Assembly: GCA_964106645.2 (NCBI GenBank)
Contig: CAXKZF020000028.1
DNA from: Podarcis pityusensis
Lineage: Eukaryota
Direction: 5' to 3' (one strand)
Length of the DNA: 64,000 nt
Shown here one piece after another: positions 33,612 to 64,000 of the stretch. The notes below the pieces were generated by a model that ran no database searches, was not told where the DNA came from, and was given only the letters and a program-made list of their open reading frames with translations. How positions within the stretch are numbered: the stretch's first letter is position 1; each line of letters opens with the position of its first letter. A program made the position numbers and the translations under genes.

Positions 33612-33674
33612 ACCCTGAGTTCTCGTCCCTCCCCTGGTTCATTCGACCTTCCCTAAGCTGAACGGAGATGGGTT

Positions 33675-36083: not shown

Positions 36084-36105
36084 ACCCGAGCGAGAGGAAC
36101 CACCA

Positions 36106-37247: not shown

Positions 37248-37314
37248 CCGGAAGGCGGCACCGGTCATCGTCCTGTGCATTTCGTGCCGACCCCGCACAC
37301 TCGGAGGTAACTAG

Positions 37315-38607: not shown

Positions 38608-38611
38608 CCTG

Positions 38612-41252: not shown

Positions 41253-42047
41253 ATGGACGCCATCGAACGAATCTGCATCGACTACGCGAACGTCCCCCGC
41301 ATCGTCGCCGACCAAGTCACGCAGCTGTTGCCGCCGTCGGTGAACCGCGACGACGTCGAACCCGCCGCGTGGGAGGGCCTGTTCATGGCCGCCCGGACGT
41401 GGCGGCCCGACGGCGGCGCCCCCTTGAAACAGTGGGTGTTCTGGCGCGTGAGGTACGCCGTCATTAGCGAGGTTCGCCGCACGTCACGGTTGACGCGCCC
41501 GAAAATCCGGCAGGCGCAAATCGTGGACGCAGCCGTCGCCGACCTCACAAACAGGATGCGGCGTGCGCCGACCCCTGCGGAGGTCGCCGCTGAGACCGGC
41601 CTCACCGTCGACGAACTCGACGTGTTGGCGTACGCCCGCTATCAGGCGCGCCGGCCCGTCTACATCGACGAGACGGAGGAACCGTTAGCGATCGCGGCGG
41701 CGCCGATGCTGGACCCCGACCGAGCAGACCCCTATCTGCTCGGATGGGTCCGCGCGGCAGTCGCCGCGCTCGATGACCGCAACCGGTACGTCATCACCGA
41801 GCTTTACTGGAACGACGCGTCAACAGGGCAGCTCGGCGACGAGCTCGGCGTGACCGCGTCGCGGGTGTCGCAGATCAAGTCGGAAACGACCACGGCGATC
41901 GGTGACGCGATCTGGTTCAACGTCCGCGGCGATCCGGGCGCCGACGTCGGCACCGGGATCGTCTCGCGGCGACGCGACGCCTACCGAGCCGCCGTCGCTG
42001 ACCAGTACCGGCACATGCAAGAAGACCGGGCCGCGACCGCGGCCTGA
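41253..42047 (+). CDS. Sigma-70 family factor, FliA/WhiG-like
   Basis: Region 2 DDVEPAAWEGLFMAARTWRPDGG, region 3 RAPTPAEVAAETG, region 4 LGVTASRVSQIK. Confidence 0.88.
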   Translation: MDAIERICIDYANVPRIVADQVTQLLPPSVNRDDVEPAAWEGLFMAARTWRPDGGAPLKQWVFWRVRYAVISEVRRTSRLTRPKIRQAQIVDAAVADLTNRMRRAPTPAEVAAETGLTVDELDVLAYARYQARRPVYIDETEEPLAIAAAPMLDPDRADPYLLGWVRAAVAALDDRNRYVITELYWNDASTGQLGDELGVTASRVSQIKSETTTAIGDAIWFNVRGDPGADVGTGIVSRRRDAYRAAVADQYRHMQEDRAATAA

Positions 42048-42218: not shown

Positions 42219-42223
42219 ATTGC

Positions 42224-42273
42224 TGGTGGGCGATACAGGACTTGAACCTGTGACCTCTTCCGTGTCAAGGAAG
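42224..42273 (-). other. attP common core = 3' half of tRNA-Val(GAC)
   Basis: Reverse complement CTTCC-TTGACAC-GGAAG-AGGTC-ACAGG-TTCAAGT-CCTGT-ATCGCCC-ACCA; D-arm and 5' acceptor strand missing; adjacent to int. Confidence 0.92.
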
Positions 42274-42409
42274 GTAAGGCCGCAGATCAGGGGTTCGACG
42301 CGACAGCAAGCGTCGCCATGATGTCTCGCGACGTCTCATACCGGGTCACCCCCGAGCATGGTCCTGACGCTGGAATGACGCATACCGCACCATCACGACG
42401 CATCACGTC

Positions 42410-43450
42410 TCACACGGGAACGGTGGCCCGTTGACCCAACGCCGCCCGGGCCCGCGCCAACCGGCCGTCACCGGCGTGCAGATATCGCTCCGTCGCACGC
42501 AACGACGAATGCCCCATCAACGCTGCAATCTCATGCGGCGGAACCCCATTCTCCGCCAACCACGACCCGTACGTGTGTCGAAGATCATGCGGCGTCGGAT
42601 ACGGCAACGCCAGACCCGCCGCCTTCACGGCCGGCACGAACACGCGCCGCCGCCAGTTCGTGTAAGCCACGCCCGGGAACAGCATCCCCGATGACACGAA
42701 CGGCCGGAGCGCGTCCGCGACCCGATCCACCATCGGCACGACCCGTTGCCCCGCCGCGGACTTCGGCAACGGCTTCACAGACCCGTCCCGCAACGTCACC
42801 TCTACCACCATGAGTTGCCCACGACCGAAGTCCACCCGGTGCGCGTGCAAACCTGACGCCTCACCCCACCGCAGACCGCAATACGTCATCAACAGGATCA
42901 ACGCCTGATCCTGGGGCTGTGACACGTGAGCGAAGAGGGCGTCGAACTCGTCGACCGTGAGGAACCGGTCGACGTGCTTCGGCGCGCGAGGCAGCGGCAC
43001 ACCCGCGGTCGGGTCCACGCGGATCCGCTTGTGCCGGGTCGCGTCAGCCAGCATGTGCCGCAGCAACCGCACGGACTGTTGCGCCGCGACCGCGCCGACC
43101 TCGCGGCGGCGCATGTCACTGATCCACTGCTCAACGTCCAGAGGCGTGATGGCGCGTAGTTTCATCGCACCCCACCGAGGCTGTACGTGGTTGCGCCAGT
43201 GGGACCGGTCGCGCGCCAGCGTGTTGGCTTCGACGCTGCGCGCCGCTGACCATTCCGTCCACCACTGCTCGACGGTGACGTTTCCGTCTTGGGGGTCGGC
43301 CCACGACCCGCGGCGCATGTCCGCTTCCTGGTCCCGAGCCCATGTCTCCACGACACGTTTCAGGGGGTCGGTGCGGGTGCGGCGTGACCCGTCCGGGGTG
43401 CGGACGGTCGCCTGCCACTTCTGCGATGGGAGCTTACGAACGTAGGGCAC
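42410..43450 (-). CDS. int: Tyrosine integrase
   Basis: GLRWGE, PKS, HDLRHTY, MGHS..TERYLH catalytic residues; N-terminal arm-binding domain. Confidence 0.95.
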   Translation of the reverse strand: MPYVRKLPSQKWQATVRTPDGSRRTRTDPLKRVVETWARDQEADMRRGSWADPQDGNVTVEQWWTEWSAARSVEANTLARDRSHWRNHVQPRWGAMKLRAITPLDVEQWISDMRRREVGAVAAQQSVRLLRHMLADATRHKRIRVDPTAGVPLPRAPKHVDRFLTVDEFDALFAHVSQPQDQALILLMTYCGLRWGEASGLHAHRVDFGRGQLMVVEVTLRDGSVKPLPKSAAGQRVVPMVDRVADALRPFVSSGMLFPGVAYTNWRRRVFVPAVKAAGLALPYPTPHDLRHTYGSWLAENGVPPHEIAALMGHSSLRATERYLHAGDGRLARARAALGQRATVPV

Positions 43451-43721
43451 TGTCGCGCCGCCCTTCTTTGTCGCGCACGACGACGAGGCCTCGTCGACGG
43501 CCGGCGCGGTATCCGATGTCGTAGCCGACTTCGTACGCCTCATCTAATGATGCCGGGGTTCGTAGCAGGACCGCGGTTAGGGCGATCGCGCACCCCAGGA
43601 GTGACACGGTCAAGCCGATGTAGAAGTGCGGGCTGTTGGTGGCGAAGTTGAGTGCGGCGGTTGTGGCTCCTGCAATGACGGTCAGGCATCCGATGCCTGC
43701 GATGTATGTCGTCCTTGGCAT
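43434..43721 (-). CDS. Two-TM membrane protein between repressor and int
   Basis: Two hydrophobic helices, AYEVGYDIGY. Confidence 0.7.
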   Translation of the reverse strand: MPRTTYIAGIGCLTVIAGATTAALNFATNSPHFYIGLTVSLLGCAIALTAVLLRTPASLDEAYEVGYDIGYRAGRRRGLVVVRDKEGRRDSALRS

Positions 43722-49536: not shown

Positions 49537-49692
49537 ATGCTGACCATGACCGACTTCTTCTGCGGCGGCGGCGGGTCCTCCACCGGCGCGGCCCAGGTCC
49601 CCGGCGTCGAAGTGAGGGTCGCCGCGAACCACTGGGAACTAGCCGTAGAAGTGCACAACGCCAACCACCAGAACGCGTTACACGTGCAATGA
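49537..49692 (+). pseudogene. N-terminal fragment of a C5-cytosine DNA methyltransferase
   Basis: TDFFCGGGGSSTGA..AANHWELAVEVHNANH (motif I), then a stop at 51 aa. Confidence 0.85.
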
Positions 49693-49931
49693 CCCGCCTC
49701 TGCCCCGCCCACGCCGATCAGCACGTGAAGTGGCTGCACGCCCGGCCAAGCATCCCGCCCTGCCTGGTGCAGATCGGCGGTCTCAGCTCGGCGGCCGTGC
49801 ACCGACAGGCCCTCGAGTCCCGCCGCATGCGCGCCGAGGCTCACGCCACCCTCGTCCGCCGCCAGCTCGCCGACATCGAGCGCTGGTGCGCAGACGGCCG
49901 CGGTTGCGCGACCCCCGACCCCACCGACTGA
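49689..49931 (+). CDS. Hypothetical protein
   Basis: ATGA overlap. Confidence 0.5.
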   Translation: MTRLCPAHADQHVKWLHARPSIPPCLVQIGGLSSAAVHRQALESRRMRAEAHATLVRRQLADIERWCADGRGCATPDPTD

Positions 49932-49942
49932 AGGAGCACCCC

Positions 49943-50308
49943 ATGACCACACCCGCATTCGAGCCCCGCACCGTCACCGACGTCGACGGAGACTCCATCT
50001 ACGTCAACGTCTTCACCCGCTCCGGCGCCATCACGCCGGGCGTCCGGGTCGAACTCGACCAGGCCGTCTACCTCGACAGCACCGGCGCCCGGCGTCTCGG
50101 GCTCGCTCTCCTCGACGCGGCCGACACGCTGCCGCTCGAGGACGGGTGGTACGTGACGTACACCAACGGTGCCCCCACGGGCCCGTGGCGAGTCTACAAG
50201 GGGTGCCCGATCGGGCCCCTGGCAACGTCGATGAGTCACCGGGCACACACGGTCCGCATCGGGCCCCTCACCCCGGCCGACCTCGACCAGCTCGGGTCCT
50301 CGCAGTGA
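49943..50308 (+). CDS. Hypothetical protein
   Basis: RBS GAAGGAG; ARRLGLALLDAAD. Confidence 0.65.
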   Translation: MTTPAFEPRTVTDVDGDSIYVNVFTRSGAITPGVRVELDQAVYLDSTGARRLGLALLDAADTLPLEDGWYVTYTNGAPTGPWRVYKGCPIGPLATSMSHRAHTVRIGPLTPADLDQLGSSQ

Positions 50309-50721
50309 CCGCCCAGCCCGCCGAGTTCGACTGGCCCCGCTTCCACGCCGAGCAGGCCGTCAAGAGCCGCCTCGGGGAGGAGCGGCACACGCCGTGGCGT
50401 TGGATCGACGACGGCCGCGCCACCCAGTACCTCGATCAGGACGTGCTCGCCGCCTACAAGGCCGCGCTCATCGAGGCCTACCGCAAGCTCGAGCAGGTCA
50501 ACGAGAAGTACCGCCGCGACCACGAGCTGGGCGAGAAGTGGAGGCGGGAGCGGGACGCCAAGGCGACCCAGGCGATGCGCTACCGGGAGGGTCTGCTCAT
50601 CGAGCGGTACGACGCCGCCGCGAAGGCTGTCGCCGTCGTGCGGGCCGCTCAGCGGGCCGGTCGGAAGACCGTACGGGTCGACGACGTGCTTGCGGCGCTG
50701 GGGAGCGGTGAGGTCTCGTGA
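50305..50721 (+). CDS. Hypothetical coiled-coil protein
   Basis: GTGA overlaps; GRKTVRVDDV. Confidence 0.6.
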   Translation: MTAQPAEFDWPRFHAEQAVKSRLGEERHTPWRWIDDGRATQYLDQDVLAAYKAALIEAYRKLEQVNEKYRRDHELGEKWRRERDAKATQAMRYREGLLIERYDAAAKAVAVVRAAQRAGRKTVRVDDVLAALGSGEVS

Positions 50722-51374
50722 CCACATCTAGTCTCCGACTCGCGATCGCCGATCCGCCCTACCTGGGGCGCGCCGCCCTCTGGTACGGAGGTAGGGGCCG
50801 AGCCAAGCAGGGCACCGCCGGTCGCGCCGCCGGACGCGGGGATCTTGCCGCGGAGTTTCACCCCAATGCCGCGGAGATCACCCCGCAGCCGTTCGTCGCG
50901 GAGCTGCGCGGAGGCGGATCGACCGCACGTCGAGTCACCGACCCGCTCGCCACCGTCACTGCATCCGGGAACCATCACGGTCTGGTGACCCCCTACTACG
51001 GGGCGTCCACGACAGCACGAAGCAGCGACGAACCGATGGGCACCCTCACGACCCGCGACCGTTACGCACTCATCATGCGCAACAACACTGGCGGCGCCGA
51101 GATGACCACCCCAGCCGGTGAGGTAATGCGGACCGTCACCGCGTCGGGACACCAATCGGTGATCACGCCGGGCGACGTCGACGCGGCAAAGGCGCGCGTG
51201 GACGACTGCTACTTCCGGATGCTTGAGCCCTCGGAGGCTGCCGCAGCGATGGCGTTCCCCCGCGACTACATATGGCGCGGCACCCGCCGTGAGGTCACGA
51301 GGTTGTCAGGCAACGCCGTCACCCCACCCGCCGCCCGCGACATCATCGGCGCCGTCGCAGCCGCGCTCACCTAA
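50718..51374 (+). pseudogene. Chimeric methyltransferase remnant: DPPY-type N-terminus fused to a C5-MTase C-terminus
   Basis: LAIADPPYLG.. then DPLATVTASGNHHGL..FRMLEPSE..GNAVTPP. Confidence 0.7.
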
Positions 51375-51747: not shown

Positions 51748-51939
51748 ATGCCGCACCTCGTCTGCCGTGCCTGCACACCGCCGGTTCGGATGCAGGTACC
51801 CGATGACGACGCCGGCGAGACCCGCGCGTGGGTCGCGCACTGCCGGGCCAACCACCCCGAGATGGGCGGCCCCGCAAACCGGTATCCACGCCGCCAACCC
51901 GACGGCGACCCGACCCCACCCACCAACCGTCACGCGTGA
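51748..51939 (+). CDS. Small Zn-binding protein
   Basis: CRAC..HCRANH. Confidence 0.45.
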   Translation: MPHLVCRACTPPVRMQVPDDDAGETRAWVAHCRANHPEMGGPANRYPRRQPDGDPTPPTNRHA

Positions 51940-51993
51940 GTCACGGTGATTGTCACGCGTGACTCACGCGTGACGTCACGCGGTTGTCACGCG
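51929..51993. repeat. Iteron-like GTCACGCGTGA array 1
   Basis: Palindromic 11-12-bp units directly upstream of the initiator RBS. Confidence 0.85.
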
Positions 51994-52013
51994 CAGAAAG
52001 GAGGTGACGTCAC

Positions 52014-52397
52014 GTGTGGTTCAAGGTTGACGACCAATTGCACTCCCACCCGAAGGCCCGCAAGGCCGGTCTAGAAGCGATGGGGCTGTGGGCCATCTCG
52101 GGGTCCTGGTCCATGTGTTACAAGACCGACGGCTTCATCCCGGGATGGTTCGTCGCAGGACAACGCGGCGGTGACACCCTCGCTGCCGCGCTTGTCTCGG
52201 CAGGCCTATGGCATGCCGCTTCGGTGGACGGTGAGGGCGGGTGGCGTTTCCGCGATTGGGATGACTACCAACCACTTTCGGACGAAATCGAGCGGGTGCG
52301 TGAGCAGTCACGGACCCGTCAGAGAGCAAGTCGTGAGCGGCGTTCGACGGGTAAACCGAAGGCTGTTCCTGGCGTTGAAGAGGGCGGCGCGGCGTGA
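52014..52397 (+). CDS. Replication initiator-like protein (N-terminal domain)
   Basis: WFKVDDQLHSHPK..AMGLW..TDGFIP..LVSAGLW..FRDWDDYQP; RBS AGAAAGGAGG. Confidence 0.75.
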   Translation: MWFKVDDQLHSHPKARKAGLEAMGLWAISGSWSMCYKTDGFIPGWFVAGQRGGDTLAAALVSAGLWHAASVDGEGGWRFRDWDDYQPLSDEIERVREQSRTRQRASRERRSTGKPKAVPGVEEGGAA

Positions 52398-52610
52398 CAT
52401 GCGGCGTGAGTCACGCGGTTGTCACGGTGATTGTCACGCGTGACTCACGCGTGACGTCACGCGTGACGTCACGCGTGACGTCACGCGTGAGTCACAGCAC
52501 CCCGACCCGACCCGACCCGACCCGACTAAGTACTTGTGGTCACCGTCTGTTTTCGGGGCTTGGGTTGTTTGTTCTTACCCCTTGTGATTGAGAATCAAAA
52601 TCAACTTACG
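52392..52610. repeat. Iteron-like array 2, (CCCGA)5 and AT-rich tract: putative replication origin
   Basis: (GTCACGCGTGAC)n 52392-52495, CCCGA x5 52501-52525, then lower-GC DNA. Confidence 0.7.
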
Positions 52611-53027: not shown

Positions 53028-53077
53028 CCGCAAACCCTCAACCCTTACGTGAAGCTTCGGAAGGAGCTGATCCAGTC

Positions 53078-53269
53078 ATGCCCGAAAACATGCCCGCGGA
53101 ACGGCAGAAATTGATCCGCGAACTCGCCGCTGCACTCACCAGCGGCGCACCCGCCAGCGACGCTGCGGTGACGTCGCTGCGGACCCGCTGCGAAGAAGCA
53201 CTCGCCCCGCCAGCATGGTGGGCCGAGCTCACCGCGGAACGCTTCGGCGGGAAACCGGTGTGGTCGTGA
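53078..53269 (+). CDS. Hypothetical protein
   Basis: RBS GAAGGAG. Confidence 0.55.
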   Translation: MPENMPAERQKLIRELAAALTSGAPASDAAVTSLRTRCEEALAPPAWWAELTAERFGGKPVWS

Positions 53270-53631: not shown

Positions 53632-54188
53632 TCGTGGCCGGGCTTGACACGTCATTGACCAAGACCGGGGTTGCGCTCATCGACACCCAGGACCGGTTGC
53701 ACGTCGAAACCGCCACCGTCGGCGTGAGAGGCCACCAAGACGCGACGTTGCGTGAACGGAACGACCGGCTCCAAGAGTCCCAAGATCAGGTCATCAACCG
53801 GCTCGTGCCGTGGTGCGGGCTCGTCGTGATCGAGGCGCCCGCGTTCGCGTCACGTAGCGGGCACATGCACGACCGGTCCGGGTTGTGGTGGCTGATCGTG
53901 CAACGGCTGCACCAGCGCAGCATCCCAGTGGTCTCGGTCGCTCCGACGGTCCGGGCGAAGTACGCCACCGGGAAAGGCAACTCGGCTAAAGGCGCCGTTG
54001 TCGACGCGGTCGCCCGCCGGTATCCGCACGTCGTGACCGGTGGTGACGACAACGTGTGTGACGCGGTGGTGCTCGCTGCGATCGGGGCGCGCCTGTTGGG
54101 GGAGCCGGTCGAGGATTCGTTGCCGAAGACGCACACGGACGCGCTCACGTCACTCGTTTTGCCGCCGGGAGCGGGGGTGGACCGGTGA
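53628..54188 (+). CDS. ruvC: RuvC-like Holliday junction resolvase
   Basis: AGLDTSLTKTGVA, VVIE, KYATGKGNSAK, DDNVCDA. Confidence 0.9.
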   Translation: MIVAGLDTSLTKTGVALIDTQDRLHVETATVGVRGHQDATLRERNDRLQESQDQVINRLVPWCGLVVIEAPAFASRSGHMHDRSGLWWLIVQRLHQRSIPVVSVAPTVRAKYATGKGNSAKGAVVDAVARRYPHVVTGGDDNVCDAVVLAAIGARLLGEPVEDSLPKTHTDALTSLVLPPGAGVDR

Positions 54189-54517
54189 GCGAAACCGACA
54201 GCACCCCCGTGAAGCCTGAACAATCGTTGTCAGAGCGGCGAACGCCCCACATCGCAGGTACGCACTCATGTGGTGCCCGTTGGAGCCGTCAGGGCGCGGT
54301 CCATTGCGGGTCGTGCCATGTCACGTTCACGAGCGTGTCCGGGTTCGACGCTCACCGCCGCGACTTCACCTGCTCGGACCCCGCGACGTTGACGAACAGC
54401 AAAGGCACCCGCGTCGAACTCGTCCAACGGGTCGACGCTGCCGGGTGCGTCATGTGGGGGTTTCCCGGCCCGGCCGACGCCAACGTCTTCAAACCCACCG
54501 ATCCGGGGCAGCCGTGA
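54185..54517 (+). CDS. FDxHR-type phage Zn-binding protein
   Basis: CGARW..HCGSCHVTF..FDAHR..CSDP. Confidence 0.75.
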   Translation: MSETDSTPVKPEQSLSERRTPHIAGTHSCGARWSRQGAVHCGSCHVTFTSVSGFDAHRRDFTCSDPATLTNSKGTRVELVQRVDAAGCVMWGFPGPADANVFKPTDPGQP

Positions 54518-54650
54518 CCGCTGACAACCCCAGGAAGCGGCCTGCGCGTCCACGTGAGCGCCGAACACGCCGGAAACGCCTAACTACCCAGACCGGACCG
54601 TCAACGCCTCCCACATGCGCTGACAGCGACCCCACTCAGGAGCCCCACCA

Positions 54651-54920
54651 ATGACCGACCCGACCCCACCCACCCTGAACCGGCCGTGGGTCGACCTCAT
54701 CACCCACGCCGCGACCCACGATTGGGCGATCCAGTCCGTCGCCGAAGGTGACGTCCACACCGTCCACATCGAACGCGTCAACAACGCCAACGTGAAAGTG
54801 GCCGCCGACACCCAATGGGTCGGCGACGTCATGCAAGGCCGTCCGCGCTGGCACGACGGGTTCGTGGCCGACTACATCAGCCTCGACGGCCTGTACCAGC
54901 AGATCCGGGACGTGACGTGA
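54651..54920 (+). CDS. Hypothetical protein
   Basis: RBS AGGAG. Confidence 0.55.
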   Translation: MTDPTPPTLNRPWVDLITHAATHDWAIQSVAEGDVHTVHIERVNNANVKVAADTQWVGDVMQGRPRWHDGFVADYISLDGLYQQIRDVT

Positions 54921-55186
54921 TCCCGGCCGTGGAACGCGCCGCCCACGCATGGTGGGACCGGCACGGTAAACGCCACCCGGACGGGCTCAGGTTCGACGAC
55001 CTGCTCCCTGTCATGCAGGACATTATCCGGGCTGACATGGAACCCCTCGTGGCCGCCGCGCTCACCACCGACGGGCCCGGCGAATCCGTCCTCGGCGAAC
55101 TCATCGCCGAGCTCGCTGCCCTGCAACGCGAAAACGCGGACCTGCGACGCCAACACGACGCCCACATCGGGAAGAAGAAGCCATGA
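54917..55186 (+). CDS. Hypothetical protein
   Basis: GTGA/ATGA overlaps. Confidence 0.55.
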   Translation: MIPAVERAAHAWWDRHGKRHPDGLRFDDLLPVMQDIIRADMEPLVAAALTTDGPGESVLGELIAELAALQRENADLRRQHDAHIGKKKP

Positions 55187-55551
55187 ACAAGCAGCAGCTC
55201 ACTGACGCCGTCCTGGACCGTTCCGGTGGCGCGTTCACCGCCGAGCAAGCCGCCCTCGCAGTCGAACTCGTGTTGGACGTGTTCGCGCGGGAGGTCGCAG
55301 CCGGACGCAAGGTCAGCGTGACCGGGTTCGGGACGCTGCAACCGCACCATGCGGCGGCGCGGGTCGGGCGGAACCCTCACACGGGTGCTCGGGTCACGAT
55401 CCCCGCGAAACGTCACGTCCGGTTCGAGCCGGGCCTGAACTTCAAGGCGCTCCTTGAAGACGAGGCGGCGTTGGGTTCGCGTCTGGTGACGTCGCGGCAG
55501 TCCCCGACGAAACCGGGCCGGTCCGTGACCGACGGACACCAGCGCGGCTAA
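55183..55551 (+). CDS. HU/IHF-family DNA-binding protein
   Basis: MNKQQL..VSVTGFGT..ARVGRNPHTG..IPA..F. Confidence 0.92.
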   Translation: MNKQQLTDAVLDRSGGAFTAEQAALAVELVLDVFAREVAAGRKVSVTGFGTLQPHHAAARVGRNPHTGARVTIPAKRHVRFEPGLNFKALLEDEAALGSRLVTSRQSPTKPGRSVTDGHQRG

Positions 55552-55573
55552 CCCCGCCCCCCTGCACCTGCAT

Positions 55574-55603
55574 GGCCCGCGCCCCGACCTGGGTGCGGGC
55601 CTT
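55574..55603 (+). terminator. Terminator-like hairpin before the conjugation-like module
   Basis: GGCCCGCGCCC-cgacct-GGGTGCGGGCCTT. Confidence 0.6.
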
Positions 55604-55630
55604 CACTCATCCCCGAAAAGGAAACCCACC

Positions 55631-55903
55631 ATGTGGCACTCATTGACACCGGTCGTCGCGGCAGGCGCCGACCAGAACATGCTGTTCAACAACCCGAAAG
55701 TTCTGTTCGTCATCACCCTCGTCATCGGCGCGATCCTCATCCTCAAGGGGTTCACGATCGCGAAGAGCAAGAACACGACGTTGACGAAGGCGTTAGAGGA
55801 CGGCGGCGTGTCCCTGTTCGGGGCGTTCCTCGTCGTCCTGGGCTTGTCCGTGCCGGTGGTCGTGGGCTTGATGACCGGGGTCGTCAACTGGGTCGGGGCA
55901 TGA
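55631..55903 (+). CDS. Small two-TM protein, pilin/VirB2-position candidate
   Basis: Leader plus two hydrophobic helices with a basic loop; first gene of the module. Confidence 0.6.
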   Translation: MWHSLTPVVAAGADQNMLFNNPKVLFVITLVIGAILILKGFTIAKSKNTTLTKALEDGGVSLFGAFLVVLGLSVPVVVGLMTGVVNWVGA

Positions 55904-55904
55904 C

Positions 55905-56564
55905 ATGACCCGCGTCCACTCAGACAACCCCGTCCGGTACGTGGAGGCGTACTGGCTGGGTGGCCGCGGGTGGCAGTGGTGGTTCACGGCGCGAGCTAAA
56001 GCGTTCGCTTTGTGCCTGTTCCTGTTCGCGACGTTCGTTGGTCCGGCCGCGGCCGGGATCGCCGCGTTGGCGTGGTGGGCGGAACCGAACGTGCTCGTTG
56101 CTGGTGTCGGCGGCGTCGTCGGCGCCGCGGTCGCGTTGGAGTCCGCGGCCACCGTCACCCGTTGGTTGTCGCCGCGGCTGACGCCTGCAACGCCGGTCCG
56201 GTACTGGATTGAGCAGGCCGTGCATGTCGCACGCGCGCCGCGCCCGCCCGCCCCACCCACCCCGCACGTCCTGCCCTCGCCAGCCCGCGCGCACACCCCG
56301 ACTGACCGCACGGTCAATGTCGGTCCCGACTGGAGGAATCATGACTGCACCACTTGCCGAGAAAGTGACGTCGCGGCTCGCGAACGTCGCCGCGTGGATG
56401 CGGCCCGCGCCGCAAGAACTCGCGACCCGCTACATCCTGCAGAACTTGGCCGTCACCCGCTCCGAGACGTGGGCGTATTTCGTGCTGGCCGACGTCGACT
56501 GGCACTCCAAGTCCGACACGGATCGCGGGTCGCTGTACCTGCAGCAGGCGGCGAGGGTCGCTGA
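55905..56564 (+). CDS. TcpE/VirB3-like membrane protein
   Basis: Two TM segments directly upstream of the VirB4-like ATPase; 3' end overlaps it. Confidence 0.55.
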   Translation: MTRVHSDNPVRYVEAYWLGGRGWQWWFTARAKAFALCLFLFATFVGPAAAGIAALAWWAEPNVLVAGVGGVVGAAVALESAATVTRWLSPRLTPATPVRYWIEQAVHVARAPRPPAPPTPHVLPSPARAHTPTDRTVNVGPDWRNHDCTTCRESDVAARERRRVDAARAARTRDPLHPAELGRHPLRDVGVFRAGRRRLALQVRHGSRVAVPAAGGEGR

Positions 56565-58878
56565 GCTCGCCGGTAGCCCGGTCTGGTTGCGGGGGGTGAG
56601 GATGCCGTACCCGGCGGCCGCGTACCGGGCCGCGCTCGAGCAGGAGTACCCGGACGCGGGGCCGATGTTCGCGGACGTCGCGGACCGGGCGGCGGCGTAC
56701 CCGGTCGCGGTGGGCACGTCGTCGGGTGCGGTCGTGTTGGGGGTCCGTGTCGCGGCCCGACCCATCCCGAAGGACATGCTCCGGCACGTCCTCGCTGACG
56801 AGATGACGATCCACCAGATCGAGGACGTCCGCGTCCGATACCGCAGGGTCGCGGCGTCCGTCGCGGGCGGGGGGTGGGAGGCGTCCCCGATCAGTGAGGA
56901 CGGCCTGGATTGGGTGTACGCCGCGGGCCGCGCCCTCGGCCATGACGTCCCTGCCGGTGGTGGCTTGACCCGGTCCAGGGATTGGGCTGCGCCTGACGTG
57001 ACGGTCACCGCGACCCAGGACGACGCCGCGCCGACGGTGCGGGTCGCTGCGACCGTGAACGGGCGGACCACGACCCGGCACACGCACGTGATGCGCGCCG
57101 AAGTCCAGCAGCGCGACGTGGAGGCTCAAGCGAAGCCGTGGCTTGCGTGGGCCGCGGACCAGGAAACCCACGTGGAGTGGGTCGCCCGCCTCGACGTCAT
57201 CCACGGGAAAGAGTTGAACGGCGCCGCGATCGTCAAGGCGCGCCGTAACCGTGACGTCGGGGACCACCTCGCCGAGCACAACACCCACATCAGCGACGCC
57301 TACGTCGAGGGCATCGCCCGCGCCGCTGACGTCGCGTCCGAGACCGGGTCGGCTGACCCTGTCGTCGCGACCCGCGTCCGCGGGCAAGTCCTGTTCGCGG
57401 TGTCCGCGGACACTGAACAAGACACCCTCGACGCCGCGGACATCATCCGTGCCGCCGCCGACGCTGCCGCTGTCAACGGCGGCCCTGGTATCCGGTTCGC
57501 GTCCGCTCCCGCGCAGTGGGCTGACTACCGCAAGTTCATCCCCGGCGAACCGTGGTCGGGGAACTCGGGGCATTCGACGCAGATGCCCGCCCGGATGGTC
57601 GCTGCGGGCGTCCCGAACGCGTCGATGCGGGCCGGGGACACCATCGGTGTCCCCCTCGGCGTGATCCGCGGGTCGAACGAGCTCGCCGTGTTCGACGCGT
57701 TCGGTGGTATCCGCGCCGACCGGGACCGGCCGGGGGTGTGGGCCGTCATCGGTGAGCAGGGCAGCGGGAAAACGACGATGCTGTCACTGGTCGCGTGGTG
57801 GTTGACATTGGCGGGTATCCCCGGCACGTTGTACGACCCGACCGGCGCGATGACACGCATCCTCGCGACTGTCGGTGACGCCGGCCGGGAGTTCCGTCTC
57901 ACGGCCGGTAACCCAGGCTTGTTGTCCCCGCATTTCTTGATCCCGGAACCGGCGCGGGTCAACTACGACACCGACCGCGACTATGCGGGTGCGGTCGCGG
58001 AAGCGGCGGGCGCGAGGATGGACACCGCGTACGACGCGGCGTTGCTGTCGTTGGAGCCGGACACGTTGGCCGCGTACCCCGAAGCCCGGGCCGCGCTGCG
58101 TGAAGCGATCACCGACGTCGGCGGCGTGTACGGCACCCACCCCCGCGACGTCATCACCGCGATCAGGAAGCAAGGCACGGTCGGTGCTGTCCTGGCGAAG
58201 CAGATCGAAGCGCGGGCGATGTTCGCGGACGGCCAGTTGATGTGGCCCCAGCACGGCACGGACGACGAGATCCACGCGACGTTCGCGCGTGACGCCCAAC
58301 TGACGTTGGTGACGACGCCAGGAGCGGTGAAACCACCACCGTCGGGGACACCGCTCGCGCAGTGGAGCGCGGACCAGATCAGGTCCCGCCCGATCCACAT
58401 GTTGGGGGCATTGTTCGCGTCCAGGGCGATCTGGGCGAACCGTGACCGGAAGTTCTACCTCAGCGACGAGGTGTCGTTGCAGGCGGGCGCGGATTCGGCG
58501 TCGTCGGCGTGGATGATGCGGATCGCGCACGACTCCCGCAAGTACGGGTGCTCGGCTGGGTTCGCGATGCAGACGTCGTCGACGGTCGATCTGATCGGGC
58601 AGCGGGCGGCGTCGCTGTTCGCGGCCGCGTTCGTGGGCCGCACGAAACAGGACAACGCGGCGGGCGCGCTCGGGGTCCTCGGCGTCGACGACGGCGAAGG
58701 GTGGGAAGACGTCCCGCCCACGCTGCAGTCGGGGTCGTTCCTGTCCTCGTCGTGGGATGACAAGACCCGCGTCGTCGACGTCGACAAGTCGTGGTGGCCT
58801 CGCGGGTTGGTGGAGGCGACGAACACGACGCCGGTGCGGTCTGCGCCGCGGTTGGCGTCGCCGCTCGGGGTCCGGTGA
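56341..58878 (+). CDS. VirB4-like conjugation ATPase
   Basis: 845 aa; C-terminal Walker A GEQGSGKT, LYDPTG, Walker B FYLSDE, DSRKYG..AMQ, AFVGR; RBS GGAGGA. Confidence 0.85.
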   Translation: MTAPLAEKVTSRLANVAAWMRPAPQELATRYILQNLAVTRSETWAYFVLADVDWHSKSDTDRGSLYLQQAARVAELAGSPVWLRGVRMPYPAAAYRAALEQEYPDAGPMFADVADRAAAYPVAVGTSSGAVVLGVRVAARPIPKDMLRHVLADEMTIHQIEDVRVRYRRVAASVAGGGWEASPISEDGLDWVYAAGRALGHDVPAGGGLTRSRDWAAPDVTVTATQDDAAPTVRVAATVNGRTTTRHTHVMRAEVQQRDVEAQAKPWLAWAADQETHVEWVARLDVIHGKELNGAAIVKARRNRDVGDHLAEHNTHISDAYVEGIARAADVASETGSADPVVATRVRGQVLFAVSADTEQDTLDAADIIRAAADAAAVNGGPGIRFASAPAQWADYRKFIPGEPWSGNSGHSTQMPARMVAAGVPNASMRAGDTIGVPLGVIRGSNELAVFDAFGGIRADRDRPGVWAVIGEQGSGKTTMLSLVAWWLTLAGIPGTLYDPTGAMTRILATVGDAGREFRLTAGNPGLLSPHFLIPEPARVNYDTDRDYAGAVAEAAGARMDTAYDAALLSLEPDTLAAYPEARAALREAITDVGGVYGTHPRDVITAIRKQGTVGAVLAKQIEARAMFADGQLMWPQHGTDDEIHATFARDAQLTLVTTPGAVKPPPSGTPLAQWSADQIRSRPIHMLGALFASRAIWANRDRKFYLSDEVSLQAGADSASSAWMMRIAHDSRKYGCSAGFAMQTSSTVDLIGQRAASLFAAAFVGRTKQDNAAGALGVLGVDDGEGWEDVPPTLQSGSFLSSSWDDKTRVVDVDKSWWPRGLVEATNTTPVRSAPRLASPLGVR

Positions 58879-60707
58879 TGTGGCGGCGCGTCGGCGCCGC
58901 CGCCGTGATGGTTGTCGCTGCTGCCGTCACCGGTAGCGGCGCGGCCGCCGCGGCAGCCGCACCTACTCTGCAGCCCGCCGTGCAGATCGAGTTCTGCCGG
59001 GAACCGCCGCCCGTGCAGATGGGCTCACAGATGCTCGTCACGAAAATCGACCCTGGACCATCGAAGCCGATGAACGGCCCGTACGGCCAGTACGGGTACG
59101 CCGGGTATCAGCAAGTGGTCTACGACCCAGGATGCACGTCCGCGATCATGAACAACCTCAAGCGTTCGCTGCCGCCTGCGTTGCAGGCAGGGGTTGACGT
59201 CGCCCGTCCCGGCGCCGGGTCATCGACCGTCGCCGGTAAGTGGATGACGGGGGCACTGTTCGTGACGGCGTGCACGGTCGGGTTGGTGCGGTTGGCGTTC
59301 GGGGAACACCCGATCTGGCGGGTGTTGGACCCTGCGACCGAGTCGATCCGGGGCATGTTCGGGATCGACTTGTTCTCGATGTGGCTGTGCGTGTCGATCG
59401 TCGCGATGGGTTTGTTCATCGCCGCGAAGCGGGCGTTGGCGTTGACGGCGGCGCTGGAATACGTCGCCCGCGCCGCCGCGATCGTCGCGGTCGCGGTCGG
59501 GTTCCTCGCGTGGACCGGGCAAGCCGGCCCGGCCCTGGACCGGGGGATCGCGGCGGCGTACACGTACGCGACGCAACTACCCGGCGAGGAAGCACCCCCG
59601 GACGCGGGTTCAGCGGTCGGTGACGCGCTCGTGTCGCATGTCATCGCGCCGATCTGGGCGGAACAGCACCTCGGGTTCAACCCGGACACGAACAAGGTGT
59701 ACCAGCCCGCGTTCCAAGCGACGATGGCTTTCGACCGGGACACCGACCGGTCGGTCACCGACCCTGGTGAGCGGGCCGATCGGGTGAAGTACATGCAGGG
59801 CGCGTTCCGGGCCGTCGCGACCCGCTTAAAGCAGGACCACCCGGACACGTACCCGCGGCTCGCGTCGTCGGAAGATTCCGACCGGGGGATGCTCGGGTTC
59901 GTCGCGTTCCTGGGCGCGTTGAACGTCGCTGTCGTCGTCGTGGTCTTGACGGCGGTCGTGGCCGGGTTCCGGCTCGCGGTGCGTGTCTTGACGAACCTGT
60001 CAGCGGCGATCGCGTTGGTCACGATGTACCCGACCTTGCAGGGCGCCGCGTTCGGTTTGGCGCGGTTCCTGGGCCGGTGGGCGTTCGCGTCGGTCGTCGC
60101 GACAGCCGGTTTCGTCGTGTACGTGCAGGCGTTCGTGCAGGGCGTCGCCGCTAACTCGGGTGTCAGTGTCGGTACGAGGGTCACGGCGATGTCGTGCGTG
60201 ACCGCGGTCCTGGTCGCCGCGTTCAAGTTCCGGAAAACGATCCTGGGTTGGTTGCGGATCGGGCGTGACATCGACGCCACCAAGGGCGCCGCAAAGAAGG
60301 CACGTGAACGGTTCGAGAAGCGGTACGGGTATCCCGAACCGGTCTCTCGCGAGCGGGCGGGCGGGGAAAGCACGTTGCGTCCTGATCCGTTGGTTCGTGA
60401 GCAGATCGCGGCCCGGAAAACCGCCGGTGACGCCGCGGTACGTGCCGTCGTGGAACGGCAACGGCAGCAGGCCGCCCAGGCCGTCGAGGTGCGGCGGAGG
60501 GCGACGCAACTCACACCAGCGTCGGCGTCAACGAACCCGCCGTTCCGGGTCGCTGCAGGTGTCGCCGCGGAGTCCGCGGCGATGGCGCGTGCCGCGGCGT
60601 CGCGTCCCGTCAAGCGAGCGTCTGGGACCGTCGCGGTCGCTGCGGCGCGTACAGCCGCGTCCGCCATGAAAGTCCCAGTCCCAGTGAGAGTGAAGGTGAT
60701 GAAGTGA
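58878..60707 (+). CDS. VirB6/TcpH-like polytopic membrane protein
   Basis: Signal-like N-terminus, many TM segments, basic C-tail; directly after the VirB4-like gene. Confidence 0.7.
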   Translation: MWRRVGAAAVMVVAAAVTGSGAAAAAAAPTLQPAVQIEFCREPPPVQMGSQMLVTKIDPGPSKPMNGPYGQYGYAGYQQVVYDPGCTSAIMNNLKRSLPPALQAGVDVARPGAGSSTVAGKWMTGALFVTACTVGLVRLAFGEHPIWRVLDPATESIRGMFGIDLFSMWLCVSIVAMGLFIAAKRALALTAALEYVARAAAIVAVAVGFLAWTGQAGPALDRGIAAAYTYATQLPGEEAPPDAGSAVGDALVSHVIAPIWAEQHLGFNPDTNKVYQPAFQATMAFDRDTDRSVTDPGERADRVKYMQGAFRAVATRLKQDHPDTYPRLASSEDSDRGMLGFVAFLGALNVAVVVVVLTAVVAGFRLAVRVLTNLSAAIALVTMYPTLQGAAFGLARFLGRWAFASVVATAGFVVYVQAFVQGVAANSGVSVGTRVTAMSCVTAVLVAAFKFRKTILGWLRIGRDIDATKGAAKKARERFEKRYGYPEPVSRERAGGESTLRPDPLVREQIAARKTAGDAAVRAVVERQRQQAAQAVEVRRRATQLTPASASTNPPFRVAAGVAAESAAMARAAASRPVKRASGTVAVAAARTAASAMKVPVPVRVKVMK

Positions 60708-61153
60708 TGGGCCGGTTCTTGTTGCGTTCAGTCCGGCGGCTCGTCGCCGCGGCCGTCGTGGTTGTCGCGGTCGGTGCGGCGGTGACGGTAACGGCGGTGT
60801 CGTGGTTGTCGTCGTCGCTGACCCCTGACCGCGCCGCCACAGCACCCGCTACGGCGGCGGCGGCGGTCGAGGGTGGGTGCGCTGCAGCTGCTGCCCGGTT
60901 CGCGGACGTCGTCGCCGGCCACGGCCCAGGCTGGGTGGCGGAGGCGACACCGTTGGTGACGTCACGGCTCGCGACGGTCCTACCGTCCGTCGGCGCCGCC
61001 GACCTGCCTTCGGGGCGGGTCGGTGTCGTCTCGACCGTCGCGGAACCTGCGGTGTGTGACGCGACCGTCACGATCGGGGGTGCGCCGTGGCGGATCGAGT
61101 TGGAAGCGGCGTCCGGTGCGTGGTTGGTGTCGGCGTGGGATGACGGGTCGTGA
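60707..61153 (+). CDS. Bitopic membrane protein (VirB8/TcpC-position candidate)
   Basis: One TM segment plus a small alpha/beta domain ending WLVSAW. Confidence 0.5.
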   Translation: MGRFLLRSVRRLVAAAVVVVAVGAAVTVTAVSWLSSSLTPDRAATAPATAAAAVEGGCAAAAARFADVVAGHGPGWVAEATPLVTSRLATVLPSVGAADLPSGRVGVVSTVAEPAVCDATVTIGGAPWRIELEAASGAWLVSAWDDGS

Positions 61154-62145
61154 AAGCGGCACTATCAGCCGTCGCGGGTGGCCTCGTCGTCGCGGGTGTC
61201 TTGTCGGTGACGGCGACGTCACCGCCGTCGGACGCCGTCACCCTCACCGGCGACGCCGCACCAGCGGCCGCGACGGTCGGCGCGCCACCGACCGTCGCGG
61301 GGTGCGTGACCACGGCAGGCGGGGAGCTCGCCGGGTTGAGCGTGGAGCAGCGCGGCATCGCGAAAGTCGGTGTTGACGCCGCGAACCGGGCGAAGCTCGG
61401 GGAACCCGCCGCCCGGATCATCGTCGCGGCAGGGATCGTCGAGTCTGGGTTGCGGAACCTGTCGCACGGGGACCGTGACTCCCTCGGGTGGTTGCAGCAG
61501 CGCCCGTCGCAAGGGTGGAAGCATGCGACGGACCCGGCCCGCGCCGCGGACGACTTCTTGGCTGCGTTGAAGCGTGTCCCCGGCTGGGCGTCGATGGAGC
61601 CGGGGGACGCCGCGCAAGCCGTCCAACGTTCCGGGTTCCCCGACCGGTACACGCAGGTGATGCCGCGGGCCACGCAGATCGTCGCCGGGATCACCGGGCA
61701 AGGTTGCGCCGACCCGGCCCCGTCCGCGGGGCGGGTGTCGGGTCGGGCGGGGACCGTGTTGGCGTGGGCGCGCGGTCAAGTCGGGAAGGCGTACGTGATG
61801 GGAGCGAACGGCCCGAACGCGTGGGACTGTTCGTCGTTCTCCCGGACCGCGATGCAACAGGCGGGCGTGACCGGGATGCCACGGACCGCGCAAGCGCAAC
61901 GGGATTGGTGCGCGTCCGGGCGGTGCAAACGCATCCCTGACGGGCAGGAGCGACCTGGGGACCTCGTGTTCTGGGATTCCTACCTCGGGCCGTCCCAGGT
62001 CGGGCACGTCGCGATCATCCGTGACCCCGCGGCCCGCGGCACCACCGACGCTCGCGGGTCGAAACAGGGCGTCATCAACGGCACCTACCCGCTGGCCGCG
62101 TCCAAACACATTTTCGAGGTGTGGCGCCCGAATGGGCTCACCTAA
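61150..62145 (+). CDS. Exported peptidoglycan hydrolase: lysozyme-like domain plus NlpC/P60 (VirB1/TcpG role)
   Basis: VESGLRNL..GDRDSLG..QQRPSQGW..AQAVQRS; QVGKAYVMG..WDCSSF..PGDLVFW..HVAI. Confidence 0.9.
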   Translation: MKAALSAVAGGLVVAGVLSVTATSPPSDAVTLTGDAAPAAATVGAPPTVAGCVTTAGGELAGLSVEQRGIAKVGVDAANRAKLGEPAARIIVAAGIVESGLRNLSHGDRDSLGWLQQRPSQGWKHATDPARAADDFLAALKRVPGWASMEPGDAAQAVQRSGFPDRYTQVMPRATQIVAGITGQGCADPAPSAGRVSGRAGTVLAWARGQVGKAYVMGANGPNAWDCSSFSRTAMQQAGVTGMPRTAQAQRDWCASGRCKRIPDGQERPGDLVFWDSYLGPSQVGHVAIIRDPAARGTTDARGSKQGVINGTYPLAASKHIFEVWRPNGLT

Positions 62146-62167
62146 CAACCAGATTGGAGGCACATGT

Positions 62168-62860
62168 ATGACGATCACCCGCTACCCTGACCGCATGTCA
62201 CTGGTGAACGGTTGGGACGAGGTGTCCGCCGCGGCGGTACACGCGACGGTCGACGCGGCCACGTTGGCGTGGCACCCGAACTTGGGGGCCGACATCCACT
62301 ACGCGTTCGTCCACGTCACCCACGGATGGATTGAGCCGTGGTGGGAAGCGAACCTCGGTTACATCACCGACGCTGCTCACGCGCAGGTCGGTGGGCAACG
62401 ACACGTCACGGATTGGGCGTGCTTTGCGTCGTTGCAGGCCGCGCTGTGCATGGGGTTCCTGCCCGACCCGCCCGTCGACCTCATCGTCGGTCTCGCGGTC
62501 CCGGCGGCGAAGCACATGAACGCCACCGAGTACCCGCCCGTCACCGTCCCTGACCCGGTACAGGTTGAGCCCGCCGCGCGTGATGACGCCCGCGATGAGG
62601 CGGTGTATTGGGCGACGGTCGATGACCGCGCCAGCCGGATCCAGGTCGGTGAAACCGTCATGGCCCTCACCGATGTCACGGAAGGTTGGTTGTTCCCGCG
62701 GAGGGTCATTCAGGCTGGCGCTTCGGTGACGGTCACTGACGCGCCGCGCCGCGGTGACATCACTATTAGGTGCGGCGAAGACATTGCCACCGTCTCGCGG
62801 CGTCGTGTCGCCGCGTGGATGGTCGCGGCTCACGAAGCGGTGACGTCATGGGCGTATTGA
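62168..62860 (+). CDS. Hypothetical protein
   Basis: RBS GGAGG; 230 aa. Confidence 0.65.
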   Translation: MTITRYPDRMSLVNGWDEVSAAAVHATVDAATLAWHPNLGADIHYAFVHVTHGWIEPWWEANLGYITDAAHAQVGGQRHVTDWACFASLQAALCMGFLPDPPVDLIVGLAVPAAKHMNATEYPPVTVPDPVQVEPAARDDARDEAVYWATVDDRASRIQVGETVMALTDVTEGWLFPRRVIQAGASVTVTDAPRRGDITIRCGEDIATVSRRRVAAWMVAAHEAVTSWAY

Positions 62861-63771
62861 CAACACCCCGTGTCGTGGCGTTGACCGCCGCCCCCCTTAT
62901 CGGGTGGGCGGCGGTTTCTTTTATCCCCGCTGACCCTTTCTGGTGGCGCGCCGGCTTTCTGCTGTTGATGCCGTTCGTGGCGCTGGTCGGGGTCGCGGCG
63001 ACAAGCGGGCGGTATTCGGTCGCGGCTATTGCTGGGTTCGTGTTGTCGGGCGCGGCGGCCGCGGCGTGGTGGCCGTTCACGCCGGCGCCGTCTTCGACCA
63101 CGGTCGGGTGGGTGCTCGTTGTCGCGGCCGTGTTGTGGTGGGGTCCGTTCGTCCCGGACGCTGCGGCCGCTGCTCGGGAGTGGCGGATCGACCGGTACGA
63201 CGACAACTTCGACGACAGCGACCTCGTCTACGACGGCGACGACCCCGACAATGGTGACCGGCCGCACGACGTCGCCGCCGGCGGCGGTGACCGGGCGTGG
63301 TCGTTGACGGTGCGGGAGGCGCCACCCGACGGGATAGAAATCGGCGGCGGGGACGACGCGTTCGACTACGAACCCGACCCGCCCGTGATCCGGACCCCAC
63401 CGCCAGGGTGGGAACCGCGGTCACGAACCGTCGCCGGAGCACCCCTGTTCGTCGACCTGGTCACCGGCGACGACGACACGGGCGGCGACAACCCTGGGGT
63501 TTGGGAACAGCTCACCGAGGTTTGGCCGGGTGACGCGAAAGCGTTGCACCTAGATGAGGTCGCCGCGATCCTCGACGTCCCCGAAGGTGACGTCCGGGAC
63601 GTCCTCACCGACGCTGGCGTGCCCGTGACTGCGAGGGTCGGGAAGCGCCGGAACGGGCAGTCCATCAGCCGTGCAGGGGTACGCCGTAGCGACCTCGACG
63701 GTGCCGCGGCAGCCCCTTCTGGCGGTTCACAACACGACCCGCCGCTCACAACACCATCCACAACGGCCTGA
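62848..63771 (+). CDS. Four-TM membrane protein with acidic linker and C-terminal wHTH-like domain
   Basis: LHLDEVAAIL..VRDVLTDAGVPV..RAGVRRSDL. Confidence 0.65.
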   Translation: MGVLTTPRVVALTAAPLIGWAAVSFIPADPFWWRAGFLLLMPFVALVGVAATSGRYSVAAIAGFVLSGAAAAAWWPFTPAPSSTTVGWVLVVAAVLWWGPFVPDAAAAAREWRIDRYDDNFDDSDLVYDGDDPDNGDRPHDVAAGGGDRAWSLTVREAPPDGIEIGGGDDAFDYEPDPPVIRTPPPGWEPRSRTVAGAPLFVDLVTGDDDTGGDNPGVWEQLTEVWPGDAKALHLDEVAAILDVPEGDVRDVLTDAGVPVTARVGKRRNGQSISRAGVRRSDLDGAAAAPSGGSQHDPPLTTPSTTA

Positions 63772-63857
63772 CCTGCGCTTTCACAACGAAACAGGCCGTT
63801 TCACAACGCCACCGCCGCAGACACTGTTCCGTGCTCACGGCGGTGGTCGTTCACAAC
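63726..63857 (+). repeat. Six direct 8-bp TTCACAAC-type repeats
   Basis: Copies at 63726, 63745 (CTCACAAC), 63757 (TCCACAAC), 63780, 63800, 63850. Confidence 0.85.
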
Positions 63858-63941
63858 GCCCACGCCCCCGCCTTGGGAGGGGACACCCCGACACCGCGGG
63901 CGGCCCCTCCCATCTCTGCCCCTCTTGGAGGTTCAACGCTC

Positions 63942-64000
63942 ATGGATCAACGCCAGCAGTACGCGCTCACCCACCCTCTGTCCCGCGCCGACGACCCCGC
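63942..64000 (+). CDS. Partial ORF running off the window
   Basis: RBS GGAGG then MDQRQQYALTHPLSRADDP. Confidence 0.5.
   Translation, partial: MDQRQQYALTHPLSRADDP

Follow-up and report, generated by a model that had tools for sequence, protein, structure and literature searches.

A VirB4-type operon resembling a Gram-positive mating-pair core is built into the genomes of a temperate actinophage lineage

The 64,000-nucleotide stretch of DNA analysed here (the window) comprises bases 1-64000 of contig CAXKZF020000028.1 from the Podarcis pityusensis assembly GCA_964106645.2, and at 55631-62145 it carries six translationally coupled open reading frames (ORFs), all on the + strand, among them a VirB4-type ATPase and a cell wall hydrolase. 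We found that this operon is an integral and maintained part of a temperate actinophage lineage. The phage-borne VirB4 module is real, integral and recurrent, and is a variant of actinomycete transfer systems in an unusual host element. The phage nevertheless fails the definition of a self-transmissible type IV secretion system (T4SS) or integrative and conjugative element (ICE), as a coupling ATPase and a relaxase are both absent.

The six-gene operon and its VirB4 ATPase

The operon and the features directly upstream of it are as follows (aa, amino acids; TM, transmembrane segment; HMM, hidden Markov model).

55183-55551, + strand: HU-like protein (PF00216), upstream of the module here and in the G006 prophage described below
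55574-55601 (approximate), + strand: 11-bp GC hairpin between HU and the operon, terminator-like
55631-55903, + strand: gene 1, 90 aa, 2 TM, in the position of a VirB2-like gene (position and hydropathy only)
55905-56564, + strand: gene 2, 219 aa, 2 TM, VirB3/TcpE-like position (positional HMM)
56341-58878, + strand: gene 3, VirB4 ATPase by predicted structure, 845 aa, TcpF-related family, catalytic motifs intact
58878-60707, + strand: gene 4, 609 aa, polytopic membrane protein, VirB6/TcpH position (positional HMM)
60704-61153, + strand: gene 5, 149 aa, bitopic (1 TM), VirB8/TcpC position (positional HMM)
61150-62145, + strand: gene 6, 331 aa, lysozyme-like and NlpC/P60 wall hydrolase, predicted VirB1 role (PF00877, positional HMM)

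By its predicted structure, the 845-aa ATPase is a full-length VirB4. The AlphaFold2 (AF2) model (predicted local distance difference test, pLDDT, 90.6) matched TrwK/VirB4 over the full length in a Foldseek search (E 6e-23, 860 columns), and TrwK/VirB4 ranked well above HerA and TrwB. A search of 1.84 billion representative sequences found 342 relatives of gene 3, and a profile of 60 relatives had VirB4 (4AG5) as its best structure match (E 7e-10). The protein carries the motifs GEQGSGKT (Walker A), YLSDE (Walker B) and DSRK. Its Pfam AAA_10 match is weak (E 0.0013), and the window protein lies below the Pfam AAA_10 and NCBIfam cut-offs. When 13 database matches and one plasmid protein were scanned beside the window's own protein, 6 of these 14 family proteins matched NCBIfam TcpF with E-values down to 8e-23, all with scores that fall short of its cut-off, by a wide margin. 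Standard screens would miss this VirB4 family because its scores fall below the Pfam and NCBIfam cut-offs.

The neighbouring subunits were examined with positional HMMs, which were built only from the positional neighbours of VirB4 in 52 other loci. These recovered gene 2 (E 1.7e-14), gene 4 (E 1.5e-59; the NF046089 match is weak, E 0.009), gene 5 (E 3e-11) and gene 6 (E 5e-70), and gave no significant match to gene 1 (E 3.7). Gene 4 has five hydrophobic segments at the threshold applied. No named family of VirB2, VirB3, VirB6 or VirB8 type reached its cut-off for genes 1, 2, 4 and 5 in Pfam and NCBIfam scans, and these four names are putative assignments from gene order and topology. Nevertheless, a VirB4 fold with Walker A and B motifs and a VirB1-type hydrolase with NlpC/P60 and lysozyme-like domains are both present, which supports the operon being a VirB4-type Gram-positive mating-pair core with intact frames. 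The initial annotation, made from the letters alone, had described the six ORFs, including the 845-aa ATPase with its Walker A/B and SRK motifs, and had named both the VirB4 ATPase and the mating-pair core, and all of this held under the profile and structure comparisons. It had also placed a terminator after HU, for which the hairpin is there but the T run is short.

Beyond 62145 the transfer block also includes gene 7, gene 8, an array of repeats and a gene for a YdjM-like membrane protein (contig 65038-65730; L002:2038-2730). The last lies 3' of the module here, in the G006 prophage and in the G402 provirus, and is also found near the module on the plasmid-like loci L066 and L093; the YdjM-like protein is likely an accessory of such transfer blocks.

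The operon as part of a phage genome and its relatives

The contig is circular and 66,649 bp long, leaving 2,649 bp beyond the window, and it is regarded as microbial bycatch because it sits in a 1.5-Gb assembly of 336 contigs. The GC content of the window is 68%. We read the contig as the probable excised circular genome of a temperate actinobacterial siphophage, because the attP is unsplit and the last ORF runs in frame over the tail-to-head join, where it stops on the start of the next gene (frame alone would be expected one time in three). Head, tail, packaging and lysis genes together with an integrase and attP mark it, by gene content, as a temperate siphophage:

5658-21854, + strand: packaging, head and tail genes (TerS, TerL, portal, scaffold, major capsid protein, connectors, tail tube, tape measure, Dit, gp37-like; Pfam, PHROGs)
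42222-42275, - strand: unsplit attP core, the 3' half of a tRNA gene (anticodon GAC, Val), read from the sequence
42410-43543: tyrosine integrase adjoining attP (Pfam)

The virion and lysis set, which also includes decoration protein, tail chaperones, lysin and holin, consists entirely of open frames in Pfam and PHROGs scans, as had been proposed from the letters. The portal is SPP1-type and the major capsid protein is about 40% identical to those of Gordonia and Arthrobacter phages. There is one integrase and one attP on the contig and no whole tRNA gene, and a host attB was looked for in the assembly and not found. Pfam scans of the contig ORFs (45 + 137) revealed no ParA/ParB-type maintenance family, and the G006 relative is integrated at a tRNA-Leu gene, so that plasmid-style maintenance (ParA/ParB, no integration) does not describe these elements.

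Two lines of evidence place the operon within the phage. The first is the sequencing reads, taken from the single public run that contains the stretch, which may be the source sample. One unitig of 17,894 nt spans both junctions of the operon and covers 54000-64000 with one difference at a depth of 25, compared with 16-28 over 44-64 kb. It extends 7.9 kb beyond 64000 versus the 2.6 kb of contig remaining, which fits a circle, although that part is not visible. Two low-depth joints in the run (59289-63267 and 59817-61229), based on 21 letters, were disregarded. Minor variants with a depth of 5-7 form clusters at 50591-50691, 53072-53138 and 53663-53723, with none listed within the six-gene operon, and these clusters suggest that the sample holds a second phage variant related to the first.

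The second is an independent 74.7-kb prophage, G006 (G006:C1 20940-95598), which is bounded by 28-bp attL and attR at tRNA-Leu with host genes on both sides and is also recorded in IMG/VR as IMGVR_UViG_2681812969_000001. Its gene order matches that of the window: HU, the six genes, gene 8, YdjM, an RNA-ligase-like gene and a nuclease. The two phages are 75% identical in the tail tube, 48% in the tape measure and 27-29% in VirB4, and both have retained open frames for all six operon genes as well as Walker A, Walker B and the arginine motif. The GC and GC3 (third codon position) contents of the operon are the same as those of the phage genes, phage genes lie on both sides of the module, and it has none of the integrase, att sites and relaxase of a separate ICE. 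Because the unitig spans the junctions at phage depth and the same slot is occupied in an independent prophage, a chimera or a separate ICE is largely refuted. The earlier statement that the module is co-oriented with the phage genes and has no integrase or att sites of its own was borne out. The checks proposed with it, reads across the ends of the module and a search for phages with the same synteny, also came out in its favour, the latter through G006 and three further phages carrying the module, G402, G800 and G801.

The wider distribution was surveyed in the family containing the closest named relative, a Kineosphaera metagenome-assembled genome, where 54 of 401 genomes carry the VirB4 family; at a stricter cut-off it was found in 32 of 401 genomes of the class. 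Contexts were fetched for 52 of the 54 genomes, two on short contigs being omitted, and only that of G006 has phage genes in common with the window. A context was called phage-like by visual inspection and by its resemblance to window proteins, and prophages unrelated to the window phage may therefore have been overlooked. Among 50 IMG/VR loci found via the hydrolase, VirB4 lay within 10 kb in two, the G006 record and G402. G402 is an 85-kb provirus with sheath and baseplate genes and an FtsK/SpoIIIE gene directly behind the module; it also encodes an SsgA-like cell division protein (G402:C1:46832-47248; L197:8832-9245). A scan with a second VirB4 clade gave three loci, G402, G800 and G801. 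G800 (36.6 kb, linear) and G801 (41.2 kb, with terminal repeats and rated complete), read over 16 and 13 kb, have portal genes, lysins adjoining the module and a TraB-like gene directly behind it (E 1e-23 and 2e-26), and in G800 small phage-like genes are interspersed among the module genes. The module is thus present in five distinct phages, three unrelated ones with an FtsK/TraB pump (G402, G800 and G801) and two without (the window phage and G006). There was no match in a tblastn search of the ATPase against the 50,697 annotated phages of INPHARED, and IMG/VR pattern scans, which detect close relatives only, likewise gave nothing for the window ATPase, for P0001 or for alignment A3. In addition, 28 metagenome loci (L006-L033) carry a more distant VirB4-like gene (22-31% identity, tblastn) with an NlpC/P60 gene about 5 kb downstream and represent another related family.

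Outside phages, the operon occurs in chromosomes at the following motorless loci:

L005: between suf genes and an acyl-CoA ligase gene
L071, L083/L104 and L210: chromosomal, motorless
L204-L209 (G765, G621 and G684): the same conserved position in three genomes, flanked by ftsH/folE and by folB, with no mobility genes

The operon at the ftsH/folE-folB locus is a domesticated VirB4 system. In 20-kb fetches, AICE-type (actinomycete ICE) or TraB-like genes lie near at least 10 module loci of the VirB4 family; the loci were sorted for TraB by profile, as a strict Walker A pattern had missed known TraB genes. A FastTree phylogeny of 144 sequences, from which G402, G800 and G801 were left out, grouped both phage VirB4s with chromosomal and plasmid-like copies in a single supported clade, in which the two are not sisters. 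As this tree is midpoint-rooted and has no clade test, no donor or order of events is claimed.

Several other genes of the phage were noted. The replication initiator is split into a 127-aa N-terminal ORF (phrog_2447, 52014-52397) and a coupled 65-aa repeat-rich frame (region 51929-52591), and palindromic GTCACGCGTGAC arrays flank the initiator piece upstream (51929-52010) and downstream (52410-52495). These arrays resemble the sps palindrome CGTCACGTGACG of Streptomyces plasmids as given in the accessible part of PMC4170104. A C5 DNA methylase is broken at 49537-51374 into a 51-aa start, three small genes and a C-terminal part, and its G006 counterpart is whole (520 aa, 75-82% identical). A Tad3-type Thoeris inhibitor lies at 1560-2060 (PF25185, E 4e-31) and a sigma-70-type factor at 41253-42047, between holin and attP, in the same place as in G006. 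In the region 23275-39886, large genes for accessory tail or carbohydrate-active proteins (beta-helix, GDSL, carbohydrate-binding module) extend over about 16 kb, and the G006 counterpart of this region (L124:4019-8440) has chitosanase GH46, alginate lyase and GH16 domains.

A channel without a recognisable DNA motor

Behind the hydrolase, three further features complete the block within the window:

62168-62860, + strand: gene 7, soluble protein of no known family that travels with the module
62848-63771, + strand: gene 8, 3-4 TM, an acidic linker and a C-terminal helix-turn-helix (HTH)-like domain, from sequence
63726-63857, + strand: clt-like array of six CACAAC direct repeats, four of them as TTCACAAC, straddling the end of gene 8

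Gene 7 has a 40% match to the gene behind the hydrolase at L005, and a similar-looking ORF, judged by eye, stands behind the G006 hydrolase. Gene 8 occupies the slot of FtsK/TraB in other module-bearing phages and is 30% identical to its G006 counterpart, which has the same architecture. It has no match in Pfam, PHROG or NCBIfam and no homologue at E 0.001 among proteins of 168-538 aa; in the Atlas it finds unnamed clusters only, with no match for its C-terminal part. Its AF2 model is unusable (pLDDT 41), and a complex prediction of its C-terminal domain with VirB4 scored 0.00, which gives no answer either way. The CACAAC array contains a TGACCTGC motif at 63769, and the end of gene 8 in G006 is likewise straddled by six repeat copies of a different unit, GCGCTAC. 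Six copies of any k-mer occurred in 0 of 2000 shuffles for both motorless phages, the stretch having been chosen by eye. The clt site of Streptomyces consists of 7-9-bp repeats that lie where the traB gene ends and are bound by TraB itself (accessible text of PMC4447253 and PMC3583192), and by this layout the array at the end of gene 8 is a putative clt-like cis site.

A weak tblastn match (E 0.9) linked gene 8 to a family of the same architecture on small Streptomyces plasmids, and hhalign of gene 8 against this family gave 88.5% (E 2.7e-6). CTACC repeats follow all seven of the small-plasmid gene-8-like genes (0-27 of 500 shuffles) around CGCAGGTCAG; the reverse complement of CGCAGGTCAG lies inside the window's array, a motif also found elsewhere in these elements. 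At L222:1888-2800 and L224-L229, a GntR-controlled operon ends in the membrane HTH gene, followed by GGTAG, CGCAGGTCAG and CTACC repeats. The stretches read of these plasmids contain no FtsK-type Walker A, and annotated relaxases are present on four of the plasmids. The membrane HTH gene and its repeats constitute an unnamed protein family and a putative cis site. One linear plasmid, pSSFR2, carries both a gene-8-like gene with CTACC repeats and the six-gene VirB4 operon.

We infer that the phage probably acquired the operon from an actinomycete plasmid transfer block. We tentatively favour the reading that this captured block would form a channel through which double-stranded phage DNA passes between mating cells, driven by a borrowed motor or by VirB4 in its place. 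Gene 6 would open the cell wall, genes 1, 2, 4 and 5 would form the membrane pore, and VirB4, as in other VirB4/Tcp systems, would power assembly of the channel. Phages with an adjacent FtsK/TraB would move double-stranded DNA and would do so with no relaxase, much as Streptomyces plasmids do. In the window phage, the product of gene 8 may attach to the repeats at the 3' end of the gene and tether the excised phage circle to the membrane, and the motor could be VirB4 itself or come from elsewhere, either as host FtsK/SpoIIIE or as a TraB encoded by a co-resident plasmid or AICE. The outcome would be a prophage that spreads from cell to cell without virions.

A number of results weigh against a role in DNA transfer. 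The whole contig contains no relaxase by the Pfam scans of its 45 + 137 ORFs, and no VirD4/TcpA or FtsK by Pfam, by a scan of all six frames for Walker A or by a TraB profile. The two canonical Walker A matches on the contig belong to VirB4 and a tail protein, and the best hit of the TraB profile had E 0.03. The window had already been described as lacking these functions, and the remaining 2,649 bp were negative as well; in view of these absences, a phage conjugating on its own, as the initial annotation had suggested, is not supported. Relaxase, VirD4 and FtsK were not found in the G006 prophage either, and TrwC is absent from all five phage records searched. An FtsK/SpoIIIE-type TraB translocase is present in G402, G800 and G801 but not in the window phage, and we found no literature report of VirB4 alone pumping DNA. 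Gene 8 was considered as a TraB remnant, but it has no significant similarity to the TraB C-termini tested and is at most a functional analogue. An HMM built from the plasmid proteins only did not match gene 8 significantly (E 2-3), and its link to the Streptomyces plasmid family appears to be of moderate strength. Because the replication initiator and methylase genes are split, the phage copy may be partly decayed. Finally, motorless operon copies with housekeeping flanks and no mobility gene are common in chromosomes, and the closest named VirB4 (43%) and closest hydrolase (63%) of the window are such copies.

The most serious alternative, which we consider unlikely but clearly in play, is a lysogenic-conversion module whose channel secretes proteins or remodels the envelope (in contact-dependent competition, superinfection defence, cell division or wall functions) and no longer moves phage DNA, a role that the motorless chromosomal copies may also have. 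Exaptation of T4SSs is well known and counts in its favour. So do the open-frame motorless chromosomal copies, three of them at one ftsH/folE-folB locus, the chromosomal location of the closest relatives of the window VirB4 and hydrolase, and the precedent of cmdABCDEF (SCO4126-4131) in S. coelicolor. According to the accessible text of PMC2782261, this chromosomal cluster comprises six co-transcribed genes, encoding five membrane proteins and a VirB4-like ATPase with no relaxase, and affects sporulation, not plasmid transfer, which is a further point against phage DNA transfer; the phage operon is likened to it by published description, not by homology comparison. On the other hand, no candidate effector or immunity pair appeared in 182 ORF scans against Pfam, the clt-like array is retained in both motorless phages, and a DNA pump is kept beside the module in three other phages. 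Protein-secreting T4SSs, moreover, usually need a VirD4-type ATPase as well.

Returning to the transfer of phage DNA, its narrower form is doubtful in our view: gene 8 would be a stand-alone adaptor acting with the clt-like array, VirB4 would be the sole element-encoded motor, and integrating phages would spread by contact without a relaxase or coupling ATPase. If VirB4-only transfer were true, the motorless chromosomal copies would be related DNA-transfer channels of Actinomycetes.

It is improbable that the operon is a relic, namely decaying cargo of a formerly complete TraB and channel block that lost its pump. TraB is present in three of the five module-bearing phages and absent here, and the split initiator and methylase indicate that the genome tolerates broken genes; yet the six frames are open, two phages with VirB4s only 27-29% identical both preserve Walker A/B and the arginine motif, and 6.5 kb of useless DNA would probably be costly in a capsid-limited genome. 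Less probable again is a channel that serves or hinders plasmids and AICEs resident in the same cell instead of moving the phage. The gene-8-like genes in GntR-controlled operons on small plasmids lacking an FtsK-type Walker A imply trans-acting networks, and AICE-type TraB genes lie near at least 10 module loci, but direct evidence is absent and the gain for the phage is little evident. An assembly chimera or a separate ICE adjoining the phage is very remote, since the occurrence of the stretch in one public run only, possibly the source sample, is outweighed by the junction-spanning unitig at equal depth, the circular contig with its one integrase and one attP, and the same slot between attL and attR in an independent prophage.

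If phage DNA is indeed transferred through the channel, lysogeny could spread without receptors or particles, and the logic of temperate-phage host range and resistance would change. The natural variants, with TraB in G402, G800 and G801 and with gene 8 and repeats in the window phage and G006, make the minimal Gram-positive conjugation motor testable, and the same pair of variants bears on the role of the many motorless VirB4 operons in actinobacterial chromosomes.

Comparison with known transfer systems

Known overlaps between phages and conjugation are phage-ICE tandems, megaplasmid passengers and TraB plasmid-phages, the two classes being otherwise treated as separate; the VirB4 channel described here forms part of at least five genomes of actinobacterial phages with different virion types, some with a DNA pump and some without. 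In the tandems, prophage DNA moves by conjugation, and in-trans mobilisation by a helper T4SS was measured in Streptococcus (accessible text of PMC13651849), and Hodor megaplasmids carry prophages that are moved by conjugation (PMC12934698, as far as its accessible text goes). As described in these sources, both involve separate neighbouring elements with their own integrase or replicon, whereas the channel genes here lie within the early arm of the phage. The Streptomyces plasmid-phage pZL12 combines virion genes and conjugal transfer in one replicon, and in the available portions of PMC4487206 and PMC3583192 it is a ParAB plasmid with a principal tra gene together with two neighbours; the window phage, in contrast, integrates and has a VirB4 channel and no tra pump. 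Actinobacterial ICE surveys required a relaxase and coupling protein, or TraB (accessible parts of PMC3218068 and PMC9513070). Minimal FtsK and VirB4 systems are treated in two reviews (PMC12857230 and PMC12282955) and the pELF paper (PMC13492992), whose accessible sections contain no phage-borne case. We found no paper on a VirB4 operon within actinobacterial phages in a literature search that left most subscription papers and supplements outside its scope.

The functional layout of the phage operon is the same as in Tcp (pCW3) and Tn916-type systems, in which TcpF is the VirB4, and by this analogy the operon would work like a mating-pair channel; those systems have a coupling ATPase and a relaxase, however, and the phage has neither. 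The lack of a relaxase is shared with the Streptomyces TraB/clt systems (pSVH1, pWTY27) and the linear plasmids SLP2 and SAP1, and the transfer ATPase of SLP2 matches the VirB4 profile (E 2e-13). Streptomyces clt sites consist of short direct repeats located where the gene for a membrane-anchored DNA-binding protein has its 3' end (PMC4447253 and PMC3583192, in the parts accessible), and the putative clt-like array at gene 8 is placed likewise. In Streptomyces TraB the DNA-binding domain is fused to an FtsK motor, whereas phage gene 8 is without a motor domain. The plasmids pSSFR2 (NZ_CP009804) and that of NEAU-S7GS2 (NZ_CP029542) have the same six genes in the same order and sizes as the phage, with VirB4s 26-27% identical, in operons annotated merely as hypothetical or ATP-binding; they differ in that an FtsK/TraB-like gene adjoins the operon and virion genes are absent. 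The closest systems to the phage operon are therefore the relaxase-free, FtsK/TraB-driven transfer regions of actinomycete plasmids and not classical ICEs.

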